This document shows positions 27,451 to 50,825 of a DNA stretch of 64,000 bases, one piece after another. Origin of the DNA: a phage. The position numbers and the translations under genes were made by a program. Below the pieces are notes generated by a model, which was given only the letters and a program-made list of their open reading frames with translations, made no database searches and was not told where the DNA came from. Each line of letters begins with the position of its first letter. Within the stretch, counting starts at the first letter, position 1. Where the stretch lies: the sequence record PV467749.1; one strand, 5' to 3'.

Positions 27451-27451
27451 A

Positions 27452-27643: not shown

Positions 27644-27651
27644 ATTATGTG

Positions 27652-27825
27652 TTATTTCGTGAAAACAAGGGTTAGTACTGCATAGTACAAGTCATACGTA
27701 TCTTTAGGGTTAATAGCACCTTTAATACATTCTTTCATTACTTCATTATAGATAATTTTAGTACTGAATGTATTGGATGTTACTATATCGGAATTAAGGT
27801 ACGAGAGGTAGAATTCTTTATACAT
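27652..27825 (-). CDS. family-2 small protein
   Basis: Start set at MYKEFYLSYL (57 aa); 8-nt overlap with the stop of 27818..28477. Confidence 0.65.
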   Translation of the reverse strand: MYKEFYLSYLNSDIVTSNTFSTKIIYNEVMKECIKGAINPKDTYDLYYAVLTLVFTK

Positions 27826-28477
27826 AGTTTGAAATATACGTAATGAGGTGATGAAATTTCTTATCAGTACTGATAAGTTCCTGTACATGTTTTGTTAGTT
27901 TGTACGCGTTTTTATAGAGTCCTGGATTATCGATTACAGTACTGTACATGAATTCTTCTTCCTCGGATAATTCTTTGTGTTCTAGTTCTTTGAGGAATTG
28001 CAGTACTGTATCAGTTTCGTTAGTACGTTGCTTTTGGAAGAAGTGCATGTTATCGTGTATTTTTTCTGAACCCATGCAGTACATATCGCCGATTTGGAAT
28101 TGTGCAGTACTGATATCATGGGTGCTATTACAATTCCCGAAGAAGTATACATTCCCGAAAGATAGAATTATAGTGCACGGGATATTATCCATGTGTATAT
28201 AGATAGATGCATTCTTTAGTGCTTTTGTGCTGGTATTAGTACTCAATACTTTTAAATCAGTATTATAGATATTAATAAAAGCAAGAGCTATATTATTTTT
28301 CTTCAAGTACGATTTGAGGTTCTTAGATACGAGAACATTTCTGGATTTTTTCTTTTTATTTCGTTTCTTTAGTACACACGGGTCGTAAGTATATGCTGGT
28401 GTAAAAGATTCTGCTTGAATACTGTTGAGGTATTTAAAGTGCTTAAGGTATTGTTTGCTGTGTGCATTAAGTTTCAT
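27818..28477 (-). CDS. hypothetical 219-aa protein, distant paralog of 48973..49623 and 62828..63400
   Basis: Basic N-terminus with a family-2-like KQYLKHFKYL. Shared late motif ELSEEEEFMYSTVI vs KLPEEQLFQYSLI vs KLNEEEYFQESIV. Confidence 0.75.
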   Translation of the reverse strand: MKLNAHSKQYLKHFKYLNSIQAESFTPAYTYDPCVLKKRNKKKKSRNVLVSKNLKSYLKKNNIALAFINIYNTDLKVLSTNTSTKALKNASIYIHMDNIPCTIILSFGNVYFFGNCNSTHDISTAQFQIGDMYCMGSEKIHDNMHFFQKQRTNETDTVLQFLKELEHKELSEEEEFMYSTVIDNPGLYKNAYKLTKHVQELISTDKKFHHLITYISNYV

Positions 28478-28487
28478 TTGGTTTCCT

Positions 28488-28667
28488 TTATACAGATGCG
28501 AGAGCGAGGATTTCCCTGAAGGGATTATCTTTTGTTAGTGCGTGATGAATGCAGCTATTGAGATTAATATTTTTAGTACTATTAGTTGCCAGGTTGTAGT
28601 ACTTCACGAAGGTGTCGTACATGAAACGGTCTTTAATGCTTATGTGTTCTATATAGTATTCTTGCAT
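28488..28667 (-). CDS. family-2 small protein (59 aa, below ORF-track cutoff)
   Basis: My translation: MQEYYIEHISIKDRFMYDTFVKYYNLATNSTKNINLNSCIHHALTKDNPFREILALASV. Confidence 0.6.
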   Translation of the reverse strand: MQEYYIEHISIKDRFMYDTFVKYYNLATNSTKNINLNSCIHHALTKDNPFREILALASV

Positions 28668-28675
28668 ATTATTCC

Positions 28676-28864
28676 TTACATAGAGATGAGTTTCAGTACA
28701 TCAATATACATATAACGTTCAGATGACAGTACACGGGTAGTGATAATCTCAATCGATATATTTTTAATTCCATGTGCAGATGATTGATGGTGCTGAATAA
28801 ATGAGTTGTGCATACTTTGTTCTATGTGGTTTAGTTTATTGAAGTAGTACTCAAAAGTGTTCAT
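28676..28864 (-). CDS. family-2 small protein
   Basis: MNTFEYYFNKL..YMYIDVLKLISM. Confidence 0.7.
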   Translation of the reverse strand: MNTFEYYFNKLNHIEQSMHNSFIQHHQSSAHGIKNISIEIITTRVLSSERYMYIDVLKLISM

Positions 28865-28871
28865 GTCTACC

Positions 28872-29051
28872 TTAGATTAAGATTAGTTTAAGTACTTCTC
28901 TGTACGTGTACTTTTCGTTTTGTGCTTCTACTGTACACGAGAGTAGATAACGTTTTTTATCTCTTTTGTTCCCGACTGTGTAGTACCTTTGGAATTTATT
29001 ATAGTTGTATCTATCTTTGTGCTGGAGGTTATAGATATAGAATTCTTGCAT
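28872..29051 (-). CDS. family-2 small protein (59 aa, below ORF-track cutoff)
   Basis: My translation: MQEFYIYNLQHKDRYNYNKFQRYYTVGNKRDKKRYLLSCTVEAQNEKYTYREVLKLILI. Confidence 0.65.
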   Translation of the reverse strand: MQEFYIYNLQHKDRYNYNKFQRYYTVGNKRDKKRYLLSCTVEAQNEKYTYREVLKLILI

Positions 29052-29059
29052 AGAGTACC

Positions 29060-29245
29060 TTAGATTGCTATCAGTTTGAGTACTTCAATATATGTGCGGT
29101 ACTCTGCTTTAATTAAATTTGTACACACTGTAAGGGAATTTCTTTGTATAAGTTTATTGCCGCTTTTATACGCATTTCTCCACACATAGAGATGAGATCT
29201 TTCAGGCATAGATAGTTTATTTGTATAGTACTCAAATGTGTTCAT
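29060..29245 (-). CDS. family-2 small protein
   Basis: MNTFEYYTNKL..YRTYIEVLKLIAI. Confidence 0.7.
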   Translation of the reverse strand: MNTFEYYTNKLSMPERSHLYVWRNAYKSGNKLIQRNSLTVCTNLIKAEYRTYIEVLKLIAI

Positions 29246-29253
29246 ATATTACC

Positions 29254-29436
29254 TCAAATAGAGATTAGTTTAAGTACTTCTCTGTATGTGTACTTTTCGT
29301 TTTGTGCATCTCTTGTGCTTGTATATAGGTATCCTCGACGATATTTGTTGCTCCCGTTCTTGTAGTTGAATTCGAACTTATTGTAGATGAATCTATCGCC
29401 AGGCTGTAATTTACTTAAGTACAATTCAATGTTCAT
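29254..29436 (-). CDS. family-2 small protein
   Basis: Start set at MNIELYLSKL (track 29457 adds MICKENT); ends YTYREVLKLISI. Confidence 0.65.
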   Translation of the reverse strand: MNIELYLSKLQPGDRFIYNKFEFNYKNGSNKYRRGYLYTSTRDAQNEKYTYREVLKLISI

Positions 29437-29446
29437 AGTATTCTCT

Positions 29447-29632
29447 TTACATATCAATAAGTTTCAGTACTGCTCTGTACGTGTACTTAGTTGTTAGTGC
29501 TTCTTTTATAGCAATACAGAAGTAATGTTGTTTGTCTCTTATACTACCGCGTTTGTAGTACCATACATTGGAGTTGTGGGTGTACTTGTCCCTGTCGGAT
29601 AGATTTTGGTAATAGTATAATATATGATTCAT
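29447..29632 (-). CDS. family-2 small protein
   Basis: MNHILYYYQNL..YTYRAVLKLIDM; ATGA overlap upstream. Confidence 0.7.
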   Translation of the reverse strand: MNHILYYYQNLSDRDKYTHNSNVWYYKRGSIRDKQHYFCIAIKEALTTKYTYRAVLKLIDM

Positions 29633-29841
29633 GGTAATGTAATTAGCCTTATTATGTTAAAGTACTCGGTCCCTGGTACACCTTGTAGAATATTATCAAC
29701 TACATTTTCTTGGTGCAGGATTAATACATTCGGTGCGGTTCTTTTAAGGTTTTTTAAAGTACTGTATTCTTGTTTAAGGATGAACTGTACATCTTTAGGG
29801 AGAATATCTAAGTAGTACTGGTGTATGTTCATAGTTTTCAT
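29629..29841 (-). CDS. family-2 small protein
   Basis: MKTMNIHQYYLDIL..YFNIIRLITLP. Confidence 0.7.
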   Translation of the reverse strand: MKTMNIHQYYLDILPKDVQFILKQEYSTLKNLKRTAPNVLILHQENVVDNILQGVPGTEYFNIIRLITLP

Positions 29842-29852
29842 ATAGTACTCTT

Positions 29853-30038
29853 TTAGAACTTAAAGATGAGGTTCATGATAGATAAGTACTTAGTTTCAGG
29901 AAATTGATGTTCTATTGCATAACGTGTCTCCAGTCTGAAGTCAAATTTATAAAAGGGACTATTCATATCCATAGGTTCATTGGGAAATGAATCTCTGTAT
30001 TGTTTGTGCAGCTTACTACAGTAGAATTCTTTATACAT
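29853..30038 (-). CDS. family-2 small protein
   Basis: MYKEFYCSKL..YLSIMNLIFKF. Confidence 0.7.
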   Translation of the reverse strand: MYKEFYCSKLHKQYRDSFPNEPMDMNSPFYKFDFRLETRYAIEHQFPETKYLSIMNLIFKF

Positions 30039-30039
30039 A

Positions 30040-30252
30040 TTAGTGCTCGATTAAAAGGGTTAGGATGTAATAGTATTGCATACTTTCTACCCCTTGTACA
30101 GCATTTCTTATTTTATTATTCCTGTACGAGTTCAAGAGTTTAGGACAATGTTTGAAGTTTATATAATTATTTTGTGTATACAGTAGGCTTTCTCGTAGAC
30201 CTTTTGTTGGTAGTGCATCAATGTAGTACTGTTCAATGTTCATAGTGTTCAT
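30040..30252 (-). CDS. family-2 small protein
   Basis: MNTMNIEQYYIDAL..YYYILTLLIEH; ATGA overlap. Confidence 0.7.
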   Translation of the reverse strand: MNTMNIEQYYIDALPTKGLRESLLYTQNNYINFKHCPKLLNSYRNNKIRNAVQGVESMQYYYILTLLIEH

Positions 30253-30476
30253 AGAGCTACCAGTACTAAGATTTTTGATAATTGTTTATTGCTATCCCCG
30301 CAGATGTTGCTGTGTAAAATACTCACTACAAGGGTATCAAGTGCATTGTTCAGCATAAGGTTACATCCAGTACTGTTATGTGTTTTTAGCTCAATTAGCC
30401 ACGAACTATCCGCGAGAAACTTCGCGTACTCTAGTTCATTTAGAGTATTAATGTAGTACTTAAGTGTAGTTGTCAT
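30249..30476 (-). CDS. family-2 small protein, first gene of the array
   Basis: MTTTLKYYINTLNELE..LSKILVLVAL; SD AAGGAG. Confidence 0.65.
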   Translation of the reverse strand: MTTTLKYYINTLNELEYAKFLADSSWLIELKTHNSTGCNLMLNNALDTLVVSILHSNICGDSNKQLSKILVLVAL

Positions 30477-30485
30477 GTACAGTTC

Positions 30486-30512
30486 TCCTTATATTCCTTA
30501 TATTCCTTCTAT
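30486..30512 (-). repeat. 3 x 9-bp tandem repeat in the leader of the family-2 array
   Basis: Plus strand: TCCTTATAT TCCTTATAT TCCTTCTAT. Minus strand: ATAGAAGGA ATATAAGGA ATATAAGGA (SD-like AAGGA x3). Confidence 0.8.
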
Positions 30513-30539
30513 AGTACATCAGTACTGAAAGGTTGTCAA
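30511..30539 (-). promoter_or_regulatory. sigma70-type promoter for the family-2 array
   Basis: TTGACA-N17-TACTAT on the minus strand, in the divergent gap shared with the RCC1 array. Confidence 0.65.
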
Positions 30540-30565
30540 GGGTTTTCTTTTTGGGGTAAATATGA

Positions 30566-30587
30566 TATAATGAATAAAGGAGGAAAT
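30566..30587 (+). promoter_or_regulatory. RCC1-array leader (-10 TATAAT + SD), copy 1
   Basis: TATAATGAATAAAGGAGGAAAT then ATG; no recognisable -35. Confidence 0.45.
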
Positions 30588-31724
30588 ATGTTACCTTTTG
30601 CAAGAATGGTTAAGTACGGGAACGTAGCACCAGATAAACTAAAAATACGTGATATTGTTGCAGGTGCTAATTCATTATTACTAATAACCGAGGATAATGA
30701 ATTATGGGTGCGTGGTAATAATGCGTATGGCAAATTAGGTATAGGAACTGATACTATAGTGAATGTAACCGAGTGGACTAAAGTTAGAGATGATGTTAAG
30801 TTTGCTTGTGCTAGTAATTTAGTATGCGTTGTATTAACTGTAGATAATAAAATTTTCTACTGTGGTGATCAATGGTTTGAATCTGGTGGTTCGACAAGTT
30901 CTAAAGTTGTTACATGGAAAGATGTTACGACACAATTTAGTGCAGTGAATCTAAGCACAGTTCGTGAAATGAAAATAACTTATTATTGTGTAGGATTACT
31001 TACAAATGATAATAGATTATATGCTAAAGGATATGATAATAACCAATCATTTGGTGGTTCAACAAGCAAAGTTAATGCTGTATTAGTTGCGTCAAATGTT
31101 TCAAAATTCTACACTTCTCTATCTGGTACTATATATTCTAGTACTACTGGTGGTTACTACCGCTGTGGTATAAGCAATACTGGAGCATTGGGTACTAGCA
31201 CAAATTTAACTTCTTATAATTTGTACTCTGCTCCCGAATTTGCATCCGAATGTGCAGTTGGTATGTCAACATTAAACTCTGGTATATTATATTATGATAC
31301 TAATGGTATCACTAGATATGTTATAGCAGGTCAAAATAGAAATTATCAACTAGGTAATTCTTCTTCAAATACCACAAACGTATATTCGTATACAGAATTA
31401 ACCGGATATAGAGGCAGGTTTAGGGATTTGTGGAGTGATATGAATAACTCTGTTCTTTCTTTTGCTATAAGCACAGATGGCAATACTTTATATTATGCTG
31501 GTACTAACAATACACTATCTTCTGGTGATCCTGGTGTTGAATATTCATCTGCATTTAAAGAAGTACCACACGGGTTTAATGATATAACAAAGGTGGTATC
31601 GTTAGCCTATCTATCTATAGTGCAAGATTCAACTGGATGGTATTATTCTGGAAATGCAACTACGTTATATGGTTTGCCATCGAGTGATGAATTTATACCA
31701 TTACCATTACCAACAATAATTTAA
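30588..31724 (+). CDS. RCC1-like seven-bladed beta-propeller protein, array copy 1
   Basis: Start at MLPFARMVKYGN (the track adds MNKGGN = translated SD). Blades e.g. LWVRGNNAYGKLGIG; close to copy 5. Confidence 0.85.
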   Translation: MLPFARMVKYGNVAPDKLKIRDIVAGANSLLLITEDNELWVRGNNAYGKLGIGTDTIVNVTEWTKVRDDVKFACASNLVCVVLTVDNKIFYCGDQWFESGGSTSSKVVTWKDVTTQFSAVNLSTVREMKITYYCVGLLTNDNRLYAKGYDNNQSFGGSTSKVNAVLVASNVSKFYTSLSGTIYSSTTGGYYRCGISNTGALGTSTNLTSYNLYSAPEFASECAVGMSTLNSGILYYDTNGITRYVIAGQNRNYQLGNSSSNTTNVYSYTELTGYRGRFRDLWSDMNNSVLSFAISTDGNTLYYAGTNNTLSSGDPGVEYSSAFKEVPHGFNDITKVVSLAYLSIVQDSTGWYYSGNATTLYGLPSSDEFIPLPLPTII

Positions 31725-31730
31725 ATACAG

Positions 31731-31757
31731 GCCAGTACTTGATACTGGCTTTTTTTG
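31731..31757 (+). terminator. rho-independent terminator
   Basis: GCCAGTActtgaTACTGGC + TTTTTTT. Confidence 0.8.
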
Positions 31758-31768
31758 ATTAAATATAG

Positions 31769-31790
31769 TATAATGAATAAGGGAGGGAAT
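31769..31790 (+). promoter_or_regulatory. RCC1-array leader cassette (-10 + SD), copy 2
   Basis: TTGATTAAATATAGTATAATGAATAAGGGAGGGAAT then ATG. Confidence 0.45.
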
Positions 31791-32939
31791 ATGTTACCTT
31801 TTGTAAGAATGTTTGATTATGGAAATGAAGCTCCTACCAACTCTGGTCGTTATAAAATATATTCCAGTGATTCTATGTATCTTCATGATACTTATACTGA
31901 CAAGTTGTATGCATCTTCTGCGACGAATTGGGGTACTGGTACAGGTGTAGCATCGAGTAAATTTATTCTTTGTGCGGAGAATGTTAAACGAGTTCTATTG
32001 GAAGATAACAGTAGTGATTGTCAATTGTATGAAGAGAAAGGTACTGGAAAAGTTTTTATCACTGGTAACACGAAGGCATTCACTGGTGTAACTGATAGAA
32101 AAACTTTGTGGACGGACTGTACTACGTGGATAACATCAAGTGGTATTAATGTTTCTGATATAAAATACATGAGTAGTTTTTATGATATGAAGGTGAATTT
32201 GATAACAAACGATGGTACATTGTATTGTTGTGGAGCTAACAATATATCGAACATATCATCATTTGGTGATGGCACAAACATTAATTCTTTTAACACATTC
32301 AAAAGAGTAGATACTATAACTTCGGTTAAAAAGGCTGTTGGTAACATTTATTTGCGAGAAGATAATACTTTATGGGGTTGTGGTTTTAACTATTACTACC
32401 AGTTGGGCACGGGTAATCAAACTTCTATTACTGGGGTGACGATGATTTCTTCGGATGTTATAGATTTTAATGTAAGTTATCAGAGTACATTTTTTATCAA
32501 ATCGGATAATAATTTGTACGCTTGTGGTAAACAGTTCGGTGCACAATATGGGAACGAATTTGGTACAGGTGGTACTTCCTCTTCTACTGATATACAATAT
32601 AAAACTCCGACATTATTGAGTTCAGGAGTTTATACTCTATATACTTGTGTTGGTAACATGGCATCACATATTGTCAAAGCAGATGAAGTTCTATATGCTT
32701 CTGGATCGAATAGGTTTGGGCAATTAGGTGTTGGTAATAATAATAATCAGTACTCCTATACTCCTTCATATACTTCGTTTAATACTTCGTGTAATTTGGT
32801 ACGCACTCCATCTGGTTCACTTATACTTACTGACACTTCGAAGTTATATTATTCGGGTGCTTCATTTGTAGTAATGGGTGGTGGTGCTGGACAGAACGTT
32901 CTTAATTATACCGAAGTCGATATGTCATTTGTGCAGTAA
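31791..32939 (+). CDS. RCC1-like beta-propeller protein, copy 2
   Basis: MLPFVRMFDYGN; LWGCGFNYYYQLGTG, LYASGSNRFGQLGVG. Confidence 0.85.
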   Translation: MLPFVRMFDYGNEAPTNSGRYKIYSSDSMYLHDTYTDKLYASSATNWGTGTGVASSKFILCAENVKRVLLEDNSSDCQLYEEKGTGKVFITGNTKAFTGVTDRKTLWTDCTTWITSSGINVSDIKYMSSFYDMKVNLITNDGTLYCCGANNISNISSFGDGTNINSFNTFKRVDTITSVKKAVGNIYLREDNTLWGCGFNYYYQLGTGNQTSITGVTMISSDVIDFNVSYQSTFFIKSDNNLYACGKQFGAQYGNEFGTGGTSSSTDIQYKTPTLLSSGVYTLYTCVGNMASHIVKADEVLYASGSNRFGQLGVGNNNNQYSYTPSYTSFNTSCNLVRTPSGSLILTDTSKLYYSGASFVVMGGGAGQNVLNYTEVDMSFVQ

Positions 32940-32947
32940 ATTAATAT

Positions 32948-32977
32948 GCCAGTACTTGAGTACTGGCTTTTCTTTTT
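32948..32977 (+). terminator. rho-independent terminator
   Basis: GCCAGTACTtgAGTACTGGC + TTTTCTTTTT. Confidence 0.8.
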
Positions 32978-32990
32978 GTATTAAATATAG

Positions 32991-33012
32991 TATAATGAAT
33001 AAGGGAGGAAAT
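32991..33012 (+). promoter_or_regulatory. RCC1-array leader cassette, copy 3
   Basis: TATAATGAATAAGGGAGGAAAT then ATG. Confidence 0.45.
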
Positions 33013-34122
33013 ATGTTACCTTTTGTAAGAATGGTTAAGTACGGGAATATTGCACCAGTACCGAAAAAAATAAAGAAAGTTATAGCAGGATATGATAATT
33101 TATATGTACTATATGGTGATGGTTCGCTATATGGTTGTGGAATCAATAACTATCAACAGTTAAATATTGATGGAACTGCTACACAAAATAATTGGGTACT
33201 AATTACCAATGGTGTTAGTAATGCATGGGCTGGTGGATACAATATTTTATATTTGAAAGAAGATAAATTTATAATGCACGGAACTAATGTCTCATTAGGT
33301 TTAGGAAATACTACAATTCCATTAGGTGGAGTAGATGTAACTTCTTCATTCCCAGATATCTCTAATATTAAAATGATATCCATTGGTTTTGATTCAATGC
33401 ACTATGTTAGTGCTGATGGTACAACTGTATATGGAAGAGGTATGAACACAAATGGTTCTGTTGGTTCAGGTAGTACTTACTCACAGAGTACTTTCACTTC
33501 AGTACTGAATAATGGAACTAATCAGGTTATTGATATATTTGGTAACGTTAATAATACAGTGCTTCTAACATCGAATGGTGAGCTTCGAGCATGTGGGACA
33601 AGTGCTTATGGTTCTATAGGAAATGAAACTGGTAAGTGGACATCGTTTGGTTTAAAATTATCTGGCACTAAAATAATGGGTGGTAATGGGTATAGTACGC
33701 TTGCATATACAAATTCGGGAATGTACCACTCAGGGTGGCAGTTAAATGGGGAACTAGGAAATGGTTTAAATACTAACGTACAGGTATATCCATTTCAATT
33801 TAACTCTAAAACGATAGATAGCAAGATAGATAAAATTGCCAAATCATCATCTGGGTCATATGTTAACATGTACTCAACAACAGAAGGAAAGATATATACG
33901 ACAGGTTCGTTTGGTAAAAACGGGTCAACTACTGCATTGAATTTGTTCACCAATACATTAACACTTATAAATTACAATCCAGATACCGCCTCGTTGTATA
34001 CGTGCACAAACTTCAGTGTTGTGTATGATGGTAATGAAACTATTGCTGTAAGTGGTAGTCCTACATATGTACCAGGGGGCGTTGCCGCTAATAGATGGAC
34101 TACAATTCCATTACCCAAGTAA
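33013..34122 (+). CDS. RCC1-like beta-propeller protein, copy 3
   Basis: MLPFVRMVKYGNIAP; LYGCGINNYQQL, VYGRGMNTNGSVGSG, MYHSGWQLNGELGNG. Confidence 0.85.
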   Translation: MLPFVRMVKYGNIAPVPKKIKKVIAGYDNLYVLYGDGSLYGCGINNYQQLNIDGTATQNNWVLITNGVSNAWAGGYNILYLKEDKFIMHGTNVSLGLGNTTIPLGGVDVTSSFPDISNIKMISIGFDSMHYVSADGTTVYGRGMNTNGSVGSGSTYSQSTFTSVLNNGTNQVIDIFGNVNNTVLLTSNGELRACGTSAYGSIGNETGKWTSFGLKLSGTKIMGGNGYSTLAYTNSGMYHSGWQLNGELGNGLNTNVQVYPFQFNSKTIDSKIDKIAKSSSGSYVNMYSTTEGKIYTTGSFGKNGSTTALNLFTNTLTLINYNPDTASLYTCTNFSVVYDGNETIAVSGSPTYVPGGVAANRWTTIPLPK

Positions 34123-34128
34123 TACTAT

Positions 34129-34155
34129 GCCAGTACTTGATACTGGCTTTTTTTT
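34129..34155 (+). terminator. rho-independent terminator
   Basis: GCCAGTActtgaTACTGGC + T8. Confidence 0.8.
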
Positions 34156-34167
34156 GATTAAATATAG

Positions 34168-34190
34168 TATAATGAATAAAGGAGGGAATT
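34168..34190 (+). promoter_or_regulatory. RCC1-array leader cassette, copy 4
   Basis: TATAATGAATAAAGGAGGGAATT then ATG. Confidence 0.45.
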
Positions 34191-35318
34191 ATGTTACCTT
34201 TTGTTAGAATGTTTGATTATGGGAATATAATCGAAGTTAATAATATAAAGAAAAGTGTTGTTAGTTACACTCTTGAAATGTTTCTAATGCAAGATGGCAC
34301 TGTATATGCACACGGTGAAGATTCAAACTATAATGCGGGTTTAAGTACACAGTTTGTATCGTTAGGAGCAGTTCAACAAATCACAACTGAAGTTGATGAC
34401 TTATGGTTAGGATCGTTTTCCGTTGTTATTAAAGGTGATAAAATATATGGTTCAGGTTCAACATATGCATTCACGAATTCTAATACTTTCCAACAAGGAT
34501 ATACTGACTGGGCTGTGTATTTCACTGGTATAGATGTTACCCAAATTAAAAAAATGTTATGTGGTTATACAGCATTTATATTAATGAAAGACGGAACACT
34601 TTATGGAAGAGGATGGAATCGAAGTGGTGCATTAGGTTTAGGACATAAAAATTATGTTTCAGCGTGGACTGTACTTGACACTAATGTGGATAATATATTT
34701 GGCGGTTACCTTGGCGATACATTGTTTAAGATTAAAAACGATGGAACTGTATATGGTTCAGGTTCAAATAACAGCTTTCAAGTTAAAGCAACATCGGGTG
34801 ATGCAACCACATTTGTTCCATTGTTTGATGATATATCTTATGATATAAAATGCAGTTTTGTTTCTGGTGTTGGTTTTGTAATGATAACATCTGATAATAA
34901 AATATATACAACTGGAACTACTTTTGCTGGTAGTGGTGCACATAGTAAAGTTTTTGATGTTGGTTTTACTATAGGTGATATGAGTAATATATATCATCCT
35001 GATTCGTTGGACTATTCGACTAGTGTTGTATTTTTAATTAATGCAGATACAAACAAACTAATAGCAACTGGGCATACCCCATTTACGGGAAGTAGTTCAA
35101 GTTCCCTTCCATATTTTACAGCATTTCAAGAATTCAATTTTACATCGTTCAATTCGAATACACGATATAGTGGGTCTTTATACTGGAATACATTTTACGA
35201 AGGTAATAATGTATGGATGAATGGATATAATCCTGAAAATACGGGTGGAAAGAATTTCTCATTGTGTTCAATACCGTTAGATACTATTATTACTAAGCAA
35301 ATTGATTTACCTTTTTGA
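34191..35318 (+). CDS. RCC1-like beta-propeller protein, copy 4
   Basis: MLPFVRMFDYGN; LYGRGWNRSGALGLG, VYGSGSNNSFQV. Confidence 0.85.
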   Translation: MLPFVRMFDYGNIIEVNNIKKSVVSYTLEMFLMQDGTVYAHGEDSNYNAGLSTQFVSLGAVQQITTEVDDLWLGSFSVVIKGDKIYGSGSTYAFTNSNTFQQGYTDWAVYFTGIDVTQIKKMLCGYTAFILMKDGTLYGRGWNRSGALGLGHKNYVSAWTVLDTNVDNIFGGYLGDTLFKIKNDGTVYGSGSNNSFQVKATSGDATTFVPLFDDISYDIKCSFVSGVGFVMITSDNKIYTTGTTFAGSGAHSKVFDVGFTIGDMSNIYHPDSLDYSTSVVFLINADTNKLIATGHTPFTGSSSSSLPYFTAFQEFNFTSFNSNTRYSGSLYWNTFYEGNNVWMNGYNPENTGGKNFSLCSIPLDTIITKQIDLPF

Positions 35319-35325
35319 ATACTAT

Positions 35326-35353
35326 GCCAGTACTTGATACTGGCTTTTTTTTT
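35326..35353 (+). terminator. rho-independent terminator
   Basis: GCCAGTActtgaTACTGGC + T9. Confidence 0.8.
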
Positions 35354-35365
35354 GATTAAATATAG

Positions 35366-35388
35366 TATAATGAATAAAGGAGGGAATT
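35366..35388 (+). promoter_or_regulatory. RCC1-array leader cassette, copy 5
   Basis: Identical cassette sequence. Confidence 0.45.
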
Positions 35389-36510
35389 ATGTTACCTTTT
35401 GTTAGAATGTTTGATTATGGAAATGAAGTACCTGATCCTAGTTCGGGATTTCGAATAATAAGTACAGGAGACGCATTACTATTAATTACTAAGAGTGGTG
35501 ATTTGTGGGTGCGTGGTTATAACCGTTATGGTAAGTTAGGTATAGGTAATAACACCACTACCTATGTACTTGATTGGACGAAGGTTAGAAGTGATGTAAA
35601 GTTTGCGTGTGGTAGTGGATTGGTAACAGTTATCTTTACTAAGGATAATCGCATATTGTACTGTGGTGACAAATGGTTTGAAACGGGTGGTGTTGGTAGT
35701 GCACAGATTTTCACATGGACAGATGTTACGCATCAATTTGGGGTAGTAGATTTGAGTACTGTAAGGGATATGAAAATATCTTATTACGCGATTGGGTTAG
35801 TTACTACTAATAATCAATTATACGCTAAGGGATTTGATAATAACCTATCATTTGGTGGGGTTACTAATAAGGCGACTGCTGTGTTTATTGCGAATAATGT
35901 ACAAGAGTTGTATACGAGTTTAGTTAGTACTATCTACGTTGATACAAGTGGTATATTACATCGTTGTGGCATGAGTGATAACGGTTCGTTGGGTAATAAT
36001 GGTAGTTTAACTTCGTATCTAAGTTATTCACAGACTGGTATGACGATTAAGGACATTGGAATGATGACTACGAACACTGGGTTATTATATACTGATTCTA
36101 GTGCACGCACGAGATATTTTATTGCTGGACAGAACTTGAATAAACAGATGGGTAATGCGGCGGGTGCGAGTGCCATTACGAGTACTTACACAGAGCTTTC
36201 TGGTAGTGTTGATAAGTTTTCTTCTTTATGGGAGAATGATGGGATATTGATGACATTTGCTGTGGGTAAGAACACTAATCAGTTATTTTATGCTGGGATG
36301 AATACTTTTCATGCGAGTGGTGGTGAATCTTCATATGCGGATACATATGAGTTAGTCCCGATGGTGTTTAATGACATACAGGAAGTGTTATGTGCACAGC
36401 GTTTATCGGTGGTACATGATTCTACGAAGTGGTATTACTGTGGTGATGCTAATTCAATGTATGGTTTACCGGACGTAAGTACTTTTACTGAGTTACCGTT
36501 GCCCTTTTAA
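35389..36510 (+). CDS. RCC1-like beta-propeller protein, copy 5
   Basis: MLPFVRMFDYGN; LWVRGYNRYGKLGIG; close paralog of copy 1. Confidence 0.85.
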   Translation: MLPFVRMFDYGNEVPDPSSGFRIISTGDALLLITKSGDLWVRGYNRYGKLGIGNNTTTYVLDWTKVRSDVKFACGSGLVTVIFTKDNRILYCGDKWFETGGVGSAQIFTWTDVTHQFGVVDLSTVRDMKISYYAIGLVTTNNQLYAKGFDNNLSFGGVTNKATAVFIANNVQELYTSLVSTIYVDTSGILHRCGMSDNGSLGNNGSLTSYLSYSQTGMTIKDIGMMTTNTGLLYTDSSARTRYFIAGQNLNKQMGNAAGASAITSTYTELSGSVDKFSSLWENDGILMTFAVGKNTNQLFYAGMNTFHASGGESSYADTYELVPMVFNDIQEVLCAQRLSVVHDSTKWYYCGDANSMYGLPDVSTFTELPLPF

Positions 36511-36516
36511 TAATAG

Positions 36517-36546
36517 GTCAGTACTCAAGTACTGGCTTTTCTTTTT
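36517..36546 (+). terminator. rho-independent terminator
   Basis: GTCAGTACTcaAGTACTGGC + TTTTCTTTTT. Confidence 0.75.
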
Positions 36547-36558
36547 GATTAAATATAG

Positions 36559-36581
36559 TATAATGAATAAAGGAGGGAATT
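36559..36581 (+). promoter_or_regulatory. RCC1-array leader cassette, copy 6
   Basis: Identical cassette sequence. Confidence 0.45.
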
Positions 36582-37763
36582 ATGTTACCTTTTGTTAGAA
36601 TGTTTGATTATGGGAACGTCGTTGAGCCACCTGTGGGTACACGTTATACCTGTAGTGACTATAGTGCGACTTATAGTTTAATAAAGGATGGTGTGTTATA
36701 TGTATCTGGGATGAATAACTATTATCAGTTAGGTAATAACACTAACGTAACACGTTACAACGAGTGGTTAAAAGTTCCAGAGACTGATAGTGTTAAGTTT
36801 TGTAGTACTGGTTATAGTCAGACAATGTATCTGACTAACAATGGTAGGATAATGATAGCAGGTGAAGATCCTACTTCCAGTGCGACTTCGGTAAGTGTAA
36901 AGGTTTGGACGGATATAACTTCTAGATTTCGTGCAGTTGATACTAAAAAGATTGTTTATATTTCAATAGAACGCTTTGGTGTAATGATGATCATGGAAGA
37001 TGGTTCAGTATGGGCGTGTGGTGTTGATAATACTGGTTGGAGTGGACAAGGGAGTAAGACTGTTGGTTTCTTTACTTTCAGACAAATATACACCGGAAGT
37101 GCAGGAAGTGCAGTTGCTTGTACTGCTGGTACTGGTACTGCGAGAATTCTGTTAGCTAATGGAACAATCTTGTCCTCTGGTACTAATACATATCATCAAT
37201 GTAATGCTAGTACTAATCCGGCTGTTCTAACATTCACTGAATCATTCCCTGGGGTTGATCCTTCATTGATATATCAAATCAAGATGTGTAATAACAACTG
37301 TATTATATTTTTGAGTGATAAGAGATATTACGGTACTGGCTGGGGAAGTTTTGGTGCATTGGGTGATGGTGATATTACGGGTTCGAATAATAAATTCTAT
37401 GCAGGTACATTGTCAGTTGCTCCTAAAAACATGCGTGCTTATATGTCGTATCTATGTAGTTCTTCTGGGGATTCTAGTATGTACATAGGCGATGATAATT
37501 TCATATACACCTGCGGTTATCGTGGGAGGAACTTAATAAATGCCACTACAGATATTGGTACGTTCACGAAATGCATTCAAAGTGCACAAGGATACAAGAA
37601 TGGACTTATATATAGTGGGAATTATTGTGCTGTAGTTTTTGATCCAGATTTGGGTTCAGGAATGTCATATGCGGTTTCATCACCAAAATTGAATTCTCCA
37701 GCACCACAGGCTAGTGTTCCAGCATTGGGTATGAGTTCGTTACAATCTATCATTTTACCATAA
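36582..37763 (+). CDS. RCC1-like beta-propeller protein, copy 6
   Basis: MLPFVRMFDYGN; LYVSGMNNYYQLGNN, YYGTGWGSFGALGDG. Confidence 0.85.
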   Translation: MLPFVRMFDYGNVVEPPVGTRYTCSDYSATYSLIKDGVLYVSGMNNYYQLGNNTNVTRYNEWLKVPETDSVKFCSTGYSQTMYLTNNGRIMIAGEDPTSSATSVSVKVWTDITSRFRAVDTKKIVYISIERFGVMMIMEDGSVWACGVDNTGWSGQGSKTVGFFTFRQIYTGSAGSAVACTAGTGTARILLANGTILSSGTNTYHQCNASTNPAVLTFTESFPGVDPSLIYQIKMCNNNCIIFLSDKRYYGTGWGSFGALGDGDITGSNNKFYAGTLSVAPKNMRAYMSYLCSSSGDSSMYIGDDNFIYTCGYRGRNLINATTDIGTFTKCIQSAQGYKNGLIYSGNYCAVVFDPDLGSGMSYAVSSPKLNSPAPQASVPALGMSSLQSIILP

Positions 37764-37766
37764 ATG

Positions 37767-37802
37767 ATACCAGTACTGAAATACGTACTGGTATTTTTTT
37801 GT
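37767..37802 (+). terminator. rho-independent terminator
   Basis: ATACCAGTACtgaaatacGTACTGGTAT + T8. Confidence 0.8.
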
Positions 37803-37810
37803 AAATACAT

Positions 37811-37837
37811 TATAATTATTATATGGAGATTTTAGTT
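37811..37837 (+). promoter_or_regulatory. variant leader (-10 + SD), copy 7
   Basis: TATAATTATTATATGGAGATTTTAGTT then ATG. Confidence 0.4.
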
Positions 37838-38968
37838 ATGTTACCTTTTGTTAGAATGTTTGATTATGGGAATACAGTGGCTGCTCCCACTGGTATAAAG
37901 GATTTCCAAGCAAATGGAAGCCACTGTATGGCACTAACATATAGTGGTGAGATGTGGGCTTATGGTACAAGTACAAGTGGATCAATGGGAACCGGATTCA
38001 CGGTGGGTGCTGCTGATAAGGGTTGGTACAAGTCTAACATTAGTAATGTTAAATCATTCAGTTCTAATATGCAGACTAGCACAGTGGCTTTGACAAATGA
38101 TGATAGAGTGCTAGTTTGTGGCTCAACTAGATTTGACAAATTCAGTACTCCAGATATTGCATCATCTAACCTTGATTGGTTGGATGTTACTGATCATATT
38201 CCACAGGAAGTTATTGATGCTGGGATGAAGCAAGTTATTAACCACGCATATTATGTTGCCATTTTTACTGAAAACAATCTATTATATAGTGTGGCATTAT
38301 CTTTGGGTAATACTAGTACTATAATAGATAGAACATGGCGAAGAAATACATTTGGTGATATACAAGTTGAACGTGTTGTTTCGTTGACACAAACCCCAAG
38401 TGGTCCTTTGTGTATAGTTCAAGATGCTGCCGGATACCAGTATGGTATTGGATATAATGGTAATAAGATTATTGATAATACTTCCACTAATTCATATTCT
38501 GTATATACCAAAATGGGTACACTTCCTTACAATGAATTTGCCATATCGAATAGCGGGAAATTCAGTTCAGCGGTATTATCAGATGGGAGAAGTGTTTATA
38601 GTGGTACATTTCCAAAGTCATTCAATGATAGTTTTGGTTCATTTTTGAAAGTTGGTGCGGTATCAAATACTGTGTTTGGTTTAGATGCAAAAAATATGCG
38701 TGGTCAATATGGTCAAAATCAATTACCAATTGCGTCGGCTGATAACAATGCAAGTAATGGCGTTGTGAGCCTTCGTAATGTTCCAGCGGGAACACAAACG
38801 AAAGACATTCGATTTATATGCGGAAATGATGTAAAGAACGTTTATATCATATACACAAATGAAGACGGCATTAGTTCATTTTATGGATTGGGACCAAACT
38901 TTGATCAAAATTCCTCAGCATATGCACAATTCGTCAAAGTGGATTTGCCAGGGGCATTACTAAATTAA
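37838..38968 (+). CDS. RCC1-like beta-propeller protein, copy 7
   Basis: Start at MLPFVRMFDYGN (the track adds MEILV); more diverged blades (MWAYGTSTSGSMGTG). Confidence 0.8.
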   Translation: MLPFVRMFDYGNTVAAPTGIKDFQANGSHCMALTYSGEMWAYGTSTSGSMGTGFTVGAADKGWYKSNISNVKSFSSNMQTSTVALTNDDRVLVCGSTRFDKFSTPDIASSNLDWLDVTDHIPQEVIDAGMKQVINHAYYVAIFTENNLLYSVALSLGNTSTIIDRTWRRNTFGDIQVERVVSLTQTPSGPLCIVQDAAGYQYGIGYNGNKIIDNTSTNSYSVYTKMGTLPYNEFAISNSGKFSSAVLSDGRSVYSGTFPKSFNDSFGSFLKVGAVSNTVFGLDAKNMRGQYGQNQLPIASADNNASNGVVSLRNVPAGTQTKDIRFICGNDVKNVYIIYTNEDGISSFYGLGPNFDQNSSAYAQFVKVDLPGALLN

Positions 38969-38978
38969 GGAGAGAAAT

Positions 38979-47787: not shown

Positions 47788-48939
47788 ATGTTACCTTTTG
47801 CAAGAATGGTTAAGTACGGGAATATTTCACCTGTTCCTGCAACACCAACTATAAAAGATTTTAAGATTGGTTTTACCCATGAAGTGTTATTGGACAGTGC
47901 AGGTGATGTGTGGGGTATTGGATATAATACCGCTGGACAGTTGGGATTTCTGGATGCTAACACAAATTCAATAGGAATGTGGTCTAAGATACATGAGAAT
48001 GTTAGATTAATTGGCGTTACTGCCAAATATACTGTAGTTGTTACAAATGATAATAGAATACTTTACGCCGGAAATAACTTAATTTCTAGTACTACAACGC
48101 TTGGGTGGAACGATATAACGTCCAGTATGGGAGAGGTTGCAGTGGATAGTATAGATACATTATATTGCACAGATGGAATGATGCATATTAAAACTGCTGA
48201 TGGCTCTTTATATGCATATGGACGTAATATGAACGCGAACGCTGGAGTTACAGGCGTTTCTGGCGTTATTAGTGTTGCAACTAAAGTTAATGGTTTACCA
48301 TCGGCAGTGAAGGATATACGATATACGTTTAGTTATGGTTCAGTACTATGCCAATTTGATACCACTTCGGTATATGGATGGGGAAGAAATGTCAATGGTG
48401 AATTAGGTCAGGGGAATGCAGCCGCAGTTCCTGCCCCATACCTATTGGCGGGAGCTTCTATTGTTATAGGTACTTCTTATAATGCTACTGCCATTGTTTC
48501 TGGTACTGGAACGTTAGTTACATGTGGTGGACAAAATAATGGTCAGTTAGGTAATGGTATTACTACTGCTGGTAATGTATACATATATGGTGCTAGGTCA
48601 TACCCTGGCGATCTTAATAATATAAGAAGTCCAGTAGATTGTAGTACAACTTATACTTCCGCATTTATGAGTACAGATGGTATATATTACACGGGTTCGA
48701 ACCGAAGTGTTTTTGGTGGTGCGAGTGGTTCTGCTACTGTTGCATTATATACTAAATGTAGTGATTTGCCAATATTATATTCCAATATAACTCAGTGGGG
48801 TAGTGGTACTATTGGTGGGGCGATATGTAGCAGAACTGAATTATATCAGTGTGGTACAGGTAGATACATTGCCGGAGATGGACAGAACGCAACTAGGTAT
48901 GGGTTTAGAAAGACACCATTACCTTGGGATGTTTATTGA
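47788..48939 (+). CDS. RCC1-like beta-propeller protein, copy 15
   Basis: MLPFARMVKYGNISP. Seven clear blades: VWGIGYNTAGQLG, VYGWGRNVNGELGQG, LVTCGGQNNGQLGNG ... Confidence 0.9.
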   Translation: MLPFARMVKYGNISPVPATPTIKDFKIGFTHEVLLDSAGDVWGIGYNTAGQLGFLDANTNSIGMWSKIHENVRLIGVTAKYTVVVTNDNRILYAGNNLISSTTTLGWNDITSSMGEVAVDSIDTLYCTDGMMHIKTADGSLYAYGRNMNANAGVTGVSGVISVATKVNGLPSAVKDIRYTFSYGSVLCQFDTTSVYGWGRNVNGELGQGNAAAVPAPYLLAGASIVIGTSYNATAIVSGTGTLVTCGGQNNGQLGNGITTAGNVYIYGARSYPGDLNNIRSPVDCSTTYTSAFMSTDGIYYTGSNRSVFGGASGSATVALYTKCSDLPILYSNITQWGSGTIGGAICSRTELYQCGTGRYIAGDGQNATRYGFRKTPLPWDVY

Positions 48940-48944
48940 AATAA

Positions 48945-48975
48945 TGCCAGTACTCAAGTACTGGCATTTCTTTTA
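48945..48975 (+). terminator. terminator between convergent genes
   Basis: TGCCAGTACTcaAGTACTGGCA + TTTCTTTT. Confidence 0.75.
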
Positions 48976-49623
48976 CATATTATATAATGTGAATGCAGTC
49001 ACTTTACCAGTTGTTGTTAGTTCATTATAAAGATACTCCAAGATTCTCGCACACTCTAAGTATATCTCGATATCATCATGAATAAGTGAGTACTGAAATA
49101 GCTGTTCTTCAGGTAATTTGTATTGACTTCCTTTTAATGAATTGAGAATATCTTTCACATCATCAAGTACTGGGTAAAGTACGAAATCTTCATCATATTT
49201 TGAAGCAATAAATTCAAATCCACCACCATCAGTACTAGATATACCAATCAGTACTTTATCAATCAAGTTAATGTTTATATAACGGTTGTGATTTGGGTGA
49301 ATTGAAATCTCAAACATACGAGTACTGTTACAATCAACATCAATATACAAATATACATCATTGAATTTATAAGTTAAACAACCGTACTCAAGAAAATCAG
49401 AACAAATAATTGATGAGTTTTTTCTTGTCTCTGCGTAATGCATCTTGATATTCTTTTCACGCATAAGTAATTCGAACTTTGCACTAAACTTGCCACCAGC
49501 AAGATAGTTAGTATTAGGACGTTTGTAACTTGCAACTGGTCGGTGGGATGATGTAAAGTATTTTTTTGTGAATCGTTTCTGTTTAGTGAAATATTCTTGA
49601 TAGAACTTACTTCTTTTATTCAT
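48973..49623 (-). CDS. hypothetical 216-aa protein inverted inside the RCC1 array; distant paralog of 27818..28477 and 62828..63400
   Basis: Basic N-terminus MNKRSKFYQEYFTKQ (family-2-like); KLPEEQLFQYSLI motif. Confidence 0.75.
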   Translation of the reverse strand: MNKRSKFYQEYFTKQKRFTKKYFTSSHRPVASYKRPNTNYLAGGKFSAKFELLMREKNIKMHYAETRKNSSIICSDFLEYGCLTYKFNDVYLYIDVDCNSTRMFEISIHPNHNRYININLIDKVLIGISSTDGGGFEFIASKYDEDFVLYPVLDDVKDILNSLKGSQYKLPEEQLFQYSLIHDDIEIYLECARILEYLYNELTTTGKVTAFTLYNM

Positions 49624-49700
49624 GAGTACCTCAATTAAATCGCTGTAAAATTGTACATTATAAAATGATTAAATAAAGTATAACACAAGGAGATTTTATC

Positions 49701-50825
49701 ATGTTACCTTTCGTATTGTTATTTGATTATGGGAACGAAAAACAAGAAAGTTCTTATGATGTTAGTGTATATGGAAACAATAACTACATTTTAAATAAAC
49801 AAACTGGAAACCTTTTTGCATCCGGTGCTGCGGCATTCATGGGTGATAACACAGTTAAGTATTATATTACCCAAATAGAATCAAATGTTCATAGCTGTGA
49901 GATAGGTTTCCTATCATCATGGATAATTAAGAAGGACAAAACTGTTTTCATTTTAGGAAACAAAAGCAGTATAGGATTAACTGGTTCGACAACATCATGG
50001 TTCGAAATTACAAATTTATTTTCTGCTGTTCCTGAAATATGGGACAACCTATTTGAATGTAAAGTTCAATTGGGATATAACTGTATACGTGTTATGACAC
50101 CACTAGGATCAATCTATGCGATTGGTACAAACACTTATGGTGCATTGGGTACTGGTACTACATCCTCATCAACTTCGTTCGTTAAAAGTGGTGCTGTGGA
50201 TGCTGTACGCATGGAATCAACAGAACGTTCAGTGTTCTATCAAAACAGTTCTGGACAATGGTTTGGATGTGGTGATAACACATATGGTATACTAGGTCTA
50301 GGAACTACCGCGAGTCGTGTAAACTCATACACCGCACCAGTATGGACTAATGCAGAAGCTGTTAGCTTCTCTAACCGTGGGATCATATACAGCCTCAATG
50401 GTACTCTATACTCATGTGGTGACAAAGTTAATGGTCAGCTAGGGGATGGATATACACAAAGCATAGACGCTGCCAGGAGCACACCATACACCATAGGAAC
50501 CGCATTCCAAATTGGTAAGGCAATAACATCAGCTACACAAGCATCAGCCAACGTATTCATTGGTAAAGATAATAAGTTCTATGGTACTGGTAGTATTGCT
50601 GCTGGTATAAATGGTAGTACTAGTGCTGCATTAAGTAAAGTTACTGCGTTATCAGCAGCACTACCACCTGACATTACATACAATGATATTATAACATTTA
50701 ATACAGGGACCGTAACTTTTATTCAAGCAAAAGGACAACTATATTATGTTGGTAGAAGAACTTACATAGATAATAGTTCAGACGTTACCACACAGTTCAG
50801 TGTAATTGGTGGCTTAGATAATTAA
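49701..50825 (+). CDS. RCC1-like beta-propeller protein, copy 16
   Basis: MLPFVLLFDYGN; IYAIGTNTYGALGTG, WFGCGDNTYGILGLG, LYSCGDKVNGQLGDG; unique upstream region. Confidence 0.85.
   Translation: MLPFVLLFDYGNEKQESSYDVSVYGNNNYILNKQTGNLFASGAAAFMGDNTVKYYITQIESNVHSCEIGFLSSWIIKKDKTVFILGNKSSIGLTGSTTSWFEITNLFSAVPEIWDNLFECKVQLGYNCIRVMTPLGSIYAIGTNTYGALGTGTTSSSTSFVKSGAVDAVRMESTERSVFYQNSSGQWFGCGDNTYGILGLGTTASRVNSYTAPVWTNAEAVSFSNRGIIYSLNGTLYSCGDKVNGQLGDGYTQSIDAARSTPYTIGTAFQIGKAITSATQASANVFIGKDNKFYGTGSIAAGINGSTSAALSKVTALSAALPPDITYNDIITFNTGTVTFIQAKGQLYYVGRRTYIDNSSDVTTQFSVIGGLDN

Follow-up and report, generated by a model that had tools for sequence, protein, structure and literature searches.

A 64,000-nucleotide stretch of phage DNA from sequence record PV467749.1 (the window) contains an array of 16 consecutive plus-strand genes, each of ~370–450 codons, between 30.6 and 50.8 kb. 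Every gene in the array begins with nearly the same 12 codons, and the subject of this analysis is the dodecapeptide that they encode (hereafter the tag), which probably directs the proteins that carry it into the virion. The source phage is Asteriusvirus-like and falls among the jumbo coliphages of the PBECO4/121Q/G17/phAPEC6 group, which are known as "Rak2-like" and have genomes of ~350–385 kb; a megablast search with positions 30000–42000 matched 37 Asteriusvirus-like records, patchily. In a preliminary description made from the letters of the sequence, the array was counted as 16 propeller genes. Fifteen are intact, whereas copy 11 is a pseudogene with a frameshift after ~45 codons, a stop at codon 60 (position 42792), and a body that resumes in another frame up to position 43792. 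Among the 15 intact copies, Pfam analysis identified the RCC1-like domain PF25390 in 14, PF13540 in 11, and PF00415 in 10, and all 15 matched PHROG 4219. The bodies are nevertheless divergent, with 15–26% pairwise identity except for copies 1 and 5, which are 51% identical.

All 16 gene starts encode MLPF[VA][RL][ML][FV][DK][YF]GN, and an AGGAGG-type Shine-Dalgarno (SD) sequence lies 5–8 nucleotides (nt) ahead of each tag ATG, so the earlier observation that the dodecapeptide is invariant directly after the SD applies to the whole array. A 32-nt pattern recovered 15 copies, compared with 0.00 expected by chance. The tag occurs as two alleles. The A allele is carried by copy 1 (30588–31724; tag at 30588–30623, MLPFARMVKYGN), copy 8 (38979–40181; tag at 38979–39014, MLPFARMVKFGN, with synonymous changes GCG and AGG), copy 10 (41370–42539; tag at 41370–41405), copy 13 (45113–46288; tag at 45113–45148), and copy 15 (47788–48939; tag at 47788–47823). 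The V allele is carried by copy 5 (35389–36510; tag at 35389–35424), the closest relative of copy 1 in its body, and copy 7 (37838–38968; tag at 37838–37873) matches it exactly over 36 nt. The remaining copies, grouped with the V allele in the preliminary description, are copy 2 (31791–32939; tag at 31791–31826, MLPFVRMFDYGN), copy 3 (33013–34122; tag at 33013–33048, MLPFVRMVKYGN), which is a mosaic of the two alleles, copy 4 (34191–35318; tag at 34191–34226), copy 6 (36582–37763; tag at 36582–36617), copy 9 (40190–41299; tag at 40190–40225, MLPFVRLFDYGN), the pseudogene copy 11 (42613–43792; tag at 42613–42648), copy 12 (43864–45042; tag at 43864–43899), copy 14 (46368–47717; tag at 46368–46403), and copy 16 (49701–50825; tag at 49701–49736, MLPFVLLFDYGN), in which the tag DNA is most diverged. 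The preliminary assignment of each copy to an allele was correct, including the mosaic in copy 3; however, the reported alternation of the two alleles along the array is not significant, as five A alleles placed among 16 positions have a probability of 0.18 of containing no adjacent pair.

Averaged over all pairs of copies, DNA identity is 0.99 in nt 1–12 of the genes, ~0.78–0.80 over nt 13–36, and 0.46 over nt 37–48, beyond which it falls to the background of ~0.3. Conservation therefore extends to the nucleotide level and collapses a few codons into each gene, as had been described. The block covers more than the first 36 nt of coding sequence: in 12 copies it also extends upstream over a terminator, a promoter-like motif, and the SD. 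A comparison of synonymous sites between the first 36 nt and the bodies showed that paired tag positions use the same codon at a rate of 0.79, compared with 0.47 expected, indicating codon uniformity beyond amino-acid constraint alone. The tag proline codon is CCT in all 16 genes, though the bodies prefer CCA, and the tag glycines use GGG or GGA only, whereas GGT accounts for 59% of glycine codons in the bodies. RNA structure does not explain this uniformity: folding of positions -16 to +40 in all 16 copies gave z-scores of -1.2 to +1.2 relative to shuffled sequences, and on this basis we rejected mRNA structure or sequestration of the SD by the tag DNA. An Rfam scan of the window found nothing.

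The tag across Rak2-like phages and its protein bodies

A 20-aa tag query aligned by TBLASTN against 50,697 phage records (E ≤ 10) matched 432 places in 61 records. Among the matches listed, all records were Rak2-like jumbo phages of 310–386 kb, with hosts in Escherichia, Salmonella, Erwinia, Yersinia, Serratia, Cronobacter, Pectobacterium, Klebsiella aerogenes, and Xanthomonas. The clade consensus is M-[LI]-P-F-[APSV]-R-[MIL]-[VLIF]-x-Y-G-N-[IVT]-[AVI]-P, and the tag is followed by a short Pro-rich linker. At the same threshold, the query had no match in RaK2 or K64-1. The conserved N-terminal peptides of these two phages thus appear to be different, and we rejected a link between the tag and the "short conserved peptides" of their depolymerases (PMC6872550).

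The corresponding arrays comprise 15 genes in Salmonella phage Munch and 10 in Erwinia phage Hallingskeid. All of these genes start with M-[IL]-P-F-x-[RK]-[IML]-[ILM]-x-Y-G-N, and most of them have no upstream promoter cassette. The same-codon fraction is 0.57 in Munch, compared with 0.50 expected from codon usage, and 0.61 in Hallingskeid, compared with 0.45; the tag codons in use include CCA, CCG, and CCT, TTT and TTC, AGA, AGG, and CGT, and all four glycine codons. In these other genera, the peptide is therefore kept while its codons vary nearly freely, which points to selection on the protein. These alignments indicate that the peptide is older and more widespread than the array in the window and that it is selected as a peptide.

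Tagged proteins were compiled from ~17 Rak2-like genomes or contigs, some of them IMG/VR and metagenome contigs retrieved with degenerate DNA patterns. The resulting 160 non-identical proteins formed 12 BLAST body clusters. Based on Pfam and PHROG, the bodies include RCC1 and Kelch proteins, Laminin_G_3/concanavalin A (ConA)-like lectins, Gly_rich_2 proteins, the phrog_6011 "virion structural protein," and unannotated families, so we rejected the possibility that the peptide is confined to propellers. One tagged protein of 676 aa is a fusion of RCC1 and Kelch. No prior description of the tag was found in the literature searched; it is a previously unremarked, clade-wide feature that joins at least 12 body families.

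Tagged proteins of 667–690 aa occur in contigs L041 (1903–3933), L029 (6413–8416, minus strand), L026 (140–2161), and L067 (11752–13824, minus strand). Pfam analysis of the long proteins in L041 and L029 identified fusions of an RCC1 propeller with a Kelch propeller, and because of such fusions the RCC1 and Kelch families are joined under single-linkage clustering. In other Asteriusvirus arrays, a tagged non-RCC1 protein of 245 aa (L015, 21072–21809, G17_00077; L002, 6143–6880, minus strand, 121Q_243; L046, 31–768) matches PHROG 4474 and is related to the Gly_rich_2 protein of Munch. This protein is absent from the window, and array content thus differs between isolates. Contigs of more distant genera (the Eneladusvirus/Mimasvirus-like L041, L029, L043/L016, L001, and L038) contain two tag classes within one genome: x-I-[IM]-[NS]-x-YGN, which lacks Arg6, occurs mostly on RCC1/Kelch propellers, and P-[RQ]-L-x-x-Y[GA]N occurs mostly on lectin-fold bodies. 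The two coexisting classes may address two different docking sites.

Homologues of the bodies also exist outside the clade. The phrog_6011-type homologues in CR8, PCH45, and pEa_SNUABM_37 align only from residue 14–19 onward and hence lack the tag, and the alignment of Clostridioides-phage RCC1 proteins to copy 4 likewise begins only at residue 14. The outside-clade homologues are annotated as antireceptor-type or other structural proteins. Isoelectric points (pI) of the tagged bodies have a median of 6.9 and are not consistently basic; the range for the bodies of the 16-gene array, 4.8–8.5, does not suggest general DNA binding. Public labels of the family include DNA condensation protein, RCC1, E3 ubiquitin ligase HERC1, X-linked retinitis pigmentosa GTPase regulator, S-layer protein, and Ig domain-containing protein, and they are supported no further than the common propeller fold. 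The array bodies share a seven-bladed beta-propeller with RCC1, UVR8, and the RCC1-like domain (RLD) of HERC2; however, sequence identity is ~14%, and the N-terminal tag has no counterpart in RCC1 proteins of cells. The database label "DNA condensation protein" is unsupported, since there is no evidence of a Ran guanine nucleotide exchange or chromatin function.

AlphaFold2 (AF2) predicted copy 4 as a seven-blade RCC1-like propeller (predicted local distance difference test [pLDDT] 89.2, predicted template modeling score [pTM] 0.88) in which residues 1–14 are disordered, with pLDDT <50 and no secondary structure. The first predicted strand comprises residues 19–25, which contain a moderately conserved "IKK[IV]" motif, and the last comprises residues 368–370, within the "IDLP" motif. 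Foldseek aligned this model to UVR8 (E = 2e-17, TM-score 0.70) and to the HERC2 RLD and RCC1 (E of ~1e-12 to 1e-13). For a tagged PHROG 6011-like lectin-fold protein, AF2 likewise predicted residues 1–16 as unstructured (pLDDT <50) in a model with pLDDT 66.5 and pTM 0.72, the body of which matches L-type lectin carbohydrate-recognition domains and clostridial neurotoxin lectin-like domains. The alignments behind both models are shallow, as the homologue searches gave 15 and three sequences. These models suggest an architecture in which a conserved but disordered peptide is joined by a short Pro-rich linker to a globular binding-type domain.

This architecture bears on one explanation in the preliminary description, namely that residues 3–11 form the "velcro" strand that closes the last blade against the C-terminal F..I.LP strand. 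RCC1-type propellers do close via an N-terminal strand, and many of the copies end in a C-terminal [FI]x[IL]xLP motif. However, the proposed check by structure prediction placed no strand within residues 1–14, with strands running from 19–25 to 368–370; the peptide also stands ahead of lectin jelly-rolls, Gly-rich proteins, and other non-propeller bodies; and the Clostridioides-phage RCC1 homologues align only from residue 14. Velcro closure by the tag is effectively excluded.

Tagged proteins in virions and candidate docking sites

We mapped published mass spectrometry (MS) results onto tagged genes. In phAPEC6, electrospray ionization tandem MS of purified particles detected gp003, gp005, gp006, gp007, gp009, and gp010 (PMC7247149, Table 1). 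In the GenBank record, all six of these proteins start with MLPF[GA]RM[IVL]KYGN, and their computed masses reproduce those in the published table. Three are orthologues of genes in the window: gp005 of copy 15 (92% identity), gp006 of copy 13 (86%), and gp010 of copy 10 (92%); gp009 is 63% identical to copy 3. In CBB, CBB_536, CBB_537, CBB_551, and CBB_552 are MS-verified structural proteins (PMC5259590); they are encoded in a small cluster of Kelch, LamG, and PHROG 6011-type genes, of which each one checked starts with MLPFx[RI]..xY[GA]N. In GAP32, the RCC1-like gp001 is an MS-identified structural protein; an RCC1-like gene lies at the very beginning of the genome, its start was matched by both the tag pattern and the 20-aa query, and it is presumably gp001. 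The phAPEC6 and CBB papers list these proteins and do not mention the shared N-terminus.

Another explanation in the preliminary description, a shared docking or targeting tag, is supported by three lines of evidence: the peptide is independent of the fold that follows it, it is conserved at the protein level with synonymous variation, and tagged proteins are present in purified virions. Absence from virions had been named as an outcome that would argue against packaging; instead, the orthologues of copies 10, 13, and 15 are among the proteins detected. We assign a probability of about 0.7 to the interpretation that the dodecapeptide is a virion-incorporation tag. It would act as a fold-independent N-terminal address label, an exposed and intrinsically unstructured extension that binds a common site on the assembling virion. 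Such binding would load many unrelated globular modules into the particle, among them RCC1/Kelch propellers and ConA/LamG-type lectin folds.

Several points weigh against this interpretation. Virion presence holds for the whole proteins rather than for the tag as such. MS counts are low (1–4 unique peptides), so that a low copy number or an adventitious presence is possible. As to location, the authors of the phAPEC6 study proposed the RCC1-like proteins as components of the inner body (PMC7247149). The AF2 model of the lectin-fold protein is only moderate and derives from three aligned sequences, and the true velcro contact, which is likely to join strand 19–25 with the C-terminal strand, is predicted from secondary structure only. 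Consensus positions 1–4 and 10–12 were partly imposed by the search patterns; however, Munch, Hallingskeid, CBB, and phAPEC6 have fully annotated arrays, which are free of this bias and confirm these positions.

If the dodecapeptide is a virion-incorporation tag, the favored docking site would be external, for example hair-like fibers or decoration sites on the phAPEC6 and CBB virions, with the bodies acting as interchangeable adhesin heads; we put the overall odds of an external site at slightly below even. Hair-like fibers without an assigned protein occur on the tail and at the capsid hexamer centers of phAPEC6 (PMC7247149), and the tail hairs of CBB are 119 nm long with tips described as "tiny terminal globular structures" (PMC5259590). 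An external site is favored because of these globular-tipped fibers, the lectin and propeller folds, the pI values that are not consistently basic, and the lack of a conserved protease site after the tag.

The main and serious alternative to an external site is an internal route of the kind known from T4. In that phage, IPI, IPII, IPIII, and Alt share an N-terminal capsid-targeting sequence (CTS) of ~10 residues, which is their sole conserved part and directs both these proteins and foreign cargo into the virion (PMC3012670). By analogy, the tag would bind the scaffolding core and the proteins would be packed in the head (inner body) and perhaps injected, with the polymorphic bodies serving as anti-defense or DNA-organizing effectors. 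The logic of a short common N-terminus on unrelated hypervariable proteins is that of the T4 CTS (PMC3012670), these phages are distantly T4-like, the phAPEC6 study suggested RCC1-like proteins for the inner body of that phage (PMC7247149), and the low MS abundance is also consistent with this route. The two systems further resemble each other in that the genes lie in hypervariable regions and evolve fast, and in that the carriers are found in mature virions, here based on the MS literature for phAPEC6, CBB, and GAP32. However, the dodecapeptide has no sequence similarity to the T4 CTS. A scan of residues 9–30 in the 160 tagged proteins identified no conserved T4-type protease site, with [LIV]xE present in only 26 proteins and at scattered positions. 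The bodies are propellers and lectin folds of 40–75 kDa, typical of surface binding, whereas the T4 internal proteins are small; their pI is not consistently basic, and their homologues elsewhere are annotated as antireceptor-type or other structural proteins. The tagged family is also far larger: a single genome can carry as many as 16 copies, and the bodies form at least 12 clusters. Weighing these points, we regard the internal route as somewhat unlikely.

A second known system consists of N-terminal docking elements in secondary receptor-binding proteins (RBPs), such as the "conserved peptide" of RBP2 in the Klebsiella phages KP32, KP34, and K11 and the 7–11-residue peptides of K1-5 and SP6 (PMC6872550, PMC13352976). 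These peptides vary by phage group, are necessary and sufficient to mount exchangeable modules for binding or enzymatic activity on the virion, and can be transferred to foreign bodies (PMC6872550, PMC13352976); in KP32, deletion of the peptide abolishes incorporation, and its fusion to foreign cargo confers incorporation (PMC13352976). The tag resembles them in combining a short conserved N-terminus with divergent distal modules. However, their partner is the T4gp10-like branching domain of a primary RBP. In addition, the tagged bodies are monomer-type propellers and lectins rather than trimeric beta-helix depolymerases, and the tagged arrays lie away from tail-fiber genes.

The tag could also have a role at the protein level other than attachment to the virion, being read by a phage chaperone, an assembly factor, a modifying enzyme, or a protease, for instance to time folding or turnover. 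A disordered, conserved N-terminal linear motif would suit any peptide-binding partner. However, virion presence is the only property known to be common to the tagged proteins, and the window and the CBB array contain no conserved untagged neighbor gene: the open reading frame (ORF) at 48973–49623 (PHROG 34359) and a DUF1190 gene that borders the CBB array, which we considered as a possible partner or chaperone, are unrelated. We therefore consider a role of this kind quite unlikely.

Upstream cassettes and exchange among gene starts

In 12 copies, the sequence between genes follows the same order: the stop codon of the preceding gene, a terminator composed of GCCAGTACTTGATACTGGC and a T-run, the TTAAATATAGTATAATGAATAAAGGAGG motif, and then the ATG with its 36-nt tag. 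A model intergenic cassette at 31729–31790 has a hairpin at 31729–31751 with a T-run, the TTAAATATAGTATAAT motif at 31759–31774, and then the SD. The 23-mer that comprises promoter and SD is exact or near-exact in 12 cassettes; its other occurrences are at 30561–30583 (a variant), 32986–33008, 34163–34185, 35361–35383, 36554–36576, 41342–41364, 42585–42607, 43836–43858, 45086–45108, 46340–46362, and 47761–47783, all on the plus strand. The promoter-like motif was found in the window only ahead of array genes (12 matches, compared with 0.00–0.29 expected). It is a variant in copy 1, in copy 7 (TAAATACATTATAAT, with SD GGAG), and in copy 16 (TTAAATAAAGTATAAC at 49669–49684), and it is missing from copies 8 and 9, which are operonic with copy 7; copy 8 has neither terminator nor promoter upstream.

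At least 12 hairpins of the form GCCAGTAC...GTACTGGC with T-runs occur in the array, and terminator-like sites in the window number 24, compared with 8.4 expected. In addition to the model cassette, plus-strand hairpins are located at 32948–32967, 34129–34147, 35326–35344, 36515–36538, 37766–37795, 41306–41324, 42547–42565, 43797–43822, 45047–45069, and 47724–47742, and one at 48943–48968 lies 3' of copy 15. The promoter-like motif itself is TAAATA-N3-TATAAT, with a TATAAT -10 hexamer and no -35 element at 16–18 nt. A canonical sigma-70 promoter appears unlikely, as a sigma-70 scan did not call the cassettes and its total matches were below the shuffled expectation. The TAAATA element resembles a late-type motif published for CBB (PMC5259590).

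Copy 11 retains a perfect cassette and tag despite its frameshift. A comparable truncated copy of 68 codons occurs in 121Q (L002, 3628–3422), and 36-codon stubs occur in metagenomic contigs (L046, 7106–7216; L050). Decayed copies with an intact 5' module seem to be common.

The tag and the body that follows it have different histories. Copy 1 carries the A allele and copy 5 the V allele, although they are mutually the closest bodies. The G17 orthologues of copies 1, 2, 8, 9, and 10 have 82–97% body identity and carry different tags (VRMLN, ARMMN, GRMVK with Y-A-N, GRMIR, and GRMLK). Among the arrays examined, those of G17 and 121Q lack the VRMFD allele, which dominates in two metagenomic relatives, and one body is preceded by ARMFK in one metagenomic contig and by VRMFD in another. 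In orthologue pairs with flanks that are 91–96% identical, the 36-nt tags are just 78–89% identical and the alleles differ. A synonymous tyrosine codon is also linked to the neighboring residue, with TAC accompanying AAG and TAT accompanying GAT or AAT, as expected of short conversion tracts. Homology between copies 2, 8, and 10 and their G17 counterparts begins at the SD and tag, with 18–46% identity upstream and 83–95% from the ATG onward, and gene order and content differ among the arrays of the window, G17, 121Q, and the metagenomic contigs. Identity at tag positions 5–9 is 0.58 within genomes and 0.33 between genomes. Such concerted evolution could stem from gene conversion, from joint co-evolution of all tags with a single common partner, or from both.

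We propose that, in this genus, a second process at the DNA level accompanies selection on the peptide. Each gene would be an autonomous cassette of terminator, TAAATA-N3-TATAAT promoter-like motif, SD, and tag, and recombination with short-tract gene conversion among cassettes would homogenize the first 36 nt, give rise to the two "alleles" and to mosaics of them, and reshuffle genes from one isolate to another. The remaining explanation in the preliminary description, a homology patch kept uniform by gene conversion, thus holds as a process, which explains the DNA uniformity, allele mosaics, and gene shuffling; as the reason for the peptide it fails, because selection at the amino-acid level keeps the peptide where the DNA has diverged. 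A stricter version would treat the 36 nt purely as a nucleic-acid element, a recombination patch or a translation-initiation or mRNA element with a functionless peptide. The abnormally uniform synonymous sites of the window, with non-preferred codons fixed, the contiguity of the patch with the conserved promoter/SD cassette, and the breakpoints between related genomes at the SD/tag boundary are in line with it. However, Munch and Hallingskeid keep the amino acids while their codons vary about as freely as usage permits, copies 8 and 9 retain the peptide in operonic positions without the cassette, and RNA structure is no better than in shuffled controls. A nucleic-acid element alone is very unlikely.

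Cassettes with a similar layout, the PeSL (promoter early stem-loop) units of T4-like phages, are repeated intergenic units of terminator and promoter that flank variable genes (PMC2839356, PMC4122927). Both systems have repeated terminator-promoter units that serve as points of homology for indels, replacements, and shuffling among close relatives. They differ in that the promoter-like motif of the array has no -35 element and does not appear to be a canonical sigma-70 early promoter, and in that the repeated unit runs through the SD into the first 12 codons and so carries a functional peptide, unlike PeSL. By sequence, the dodecapeptide is a member of none of the three known systems, the T4 CTS, the RBP docking peptides, and PeSL.

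A second tandem array of paralogues abuts copy 1 on the minus strand (25876–30476). It contains ~20 small ORFs of 59–78 aa with two motifs in common, M..[HK]E[FY]Y at the N-terminus and Y..[VIL]L.L[IV] at the C-terminus, and 18 of 21 have significant mutual BLASTP matches. This array is interrupted by an ORF of 219 aa (27818–28477, minus strand), and the G17 and 121Q equivalents are annotated as hypothetical proteins. Within the RCC1 array, an ORF of 216 aa (48973–49623) likewise lies on the minus strand, opposite to the RCC1-like genes; it matches PHROG 34359, which has no assigned function. The two longer ORFs have weak colinear similarity (29% identity over 55 aa, pairwise E = 0.003) and may be distant paralogues, judging from this alignment. 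Next to the small-ORF array, both strands of a ~1.3-kb stretch at 24563–25876 lack ORFs of ≥60 aa, and the GC skew changes sign there (~26 kb); the region has no Rfam or tRNA match, and G17 has a similar unannotated gap of ~1.9 kb.

Implications for Rak2-like phages

Should the tag mediate incorporation at an external site, a more specific model can be put forward, though only tentatively. The dodecapeptide would be a universal plug that mounts a large set of rapidly reshuffled "heads" with lectin-like or propeller folds, as many as 16 in one genome, on the hair-like fibers or on capsid or tail decoration sites. Lineage variants at positions 5, 8, and 9 would co-evolve with the socket, and the different tag classes (VRMFD and ARMVK in the window, x-I-[IM]-N and P-[RQ]-L-x in more distant genera) would address different sockets. 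If this model is true, these phages have a natural system for combinatorial display on the surface of their virions.

The T4 CTS and the KP32 docking peptide have already been used for display or cargo loading, and a portable incorporation tag of 12–15 residues would lend itself directly to phage display or to the loading of cargo on a 350-kb phage. The fusion of a functional peptide to a mobile promoter cassette means that a regulatory signal, a translation start, and an address label move as one recombination module, and movement of promoter, SD, and tag as one unit is a new feature beside the known PeSL cassettes. A gene family of ~20 kb that has been labeled "DNA condensation protein" or "regulator of chromosome condensation" is better described as one class of tagged virion proteins, to which Kelch and lectin-fold members also belong. 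For the Rak2-like jumbo phages, the tag offers a testable handle on the composition of their "hairy" fibers, fiber tips, or inner body and on the recruitment of at least 60 virion proteins.

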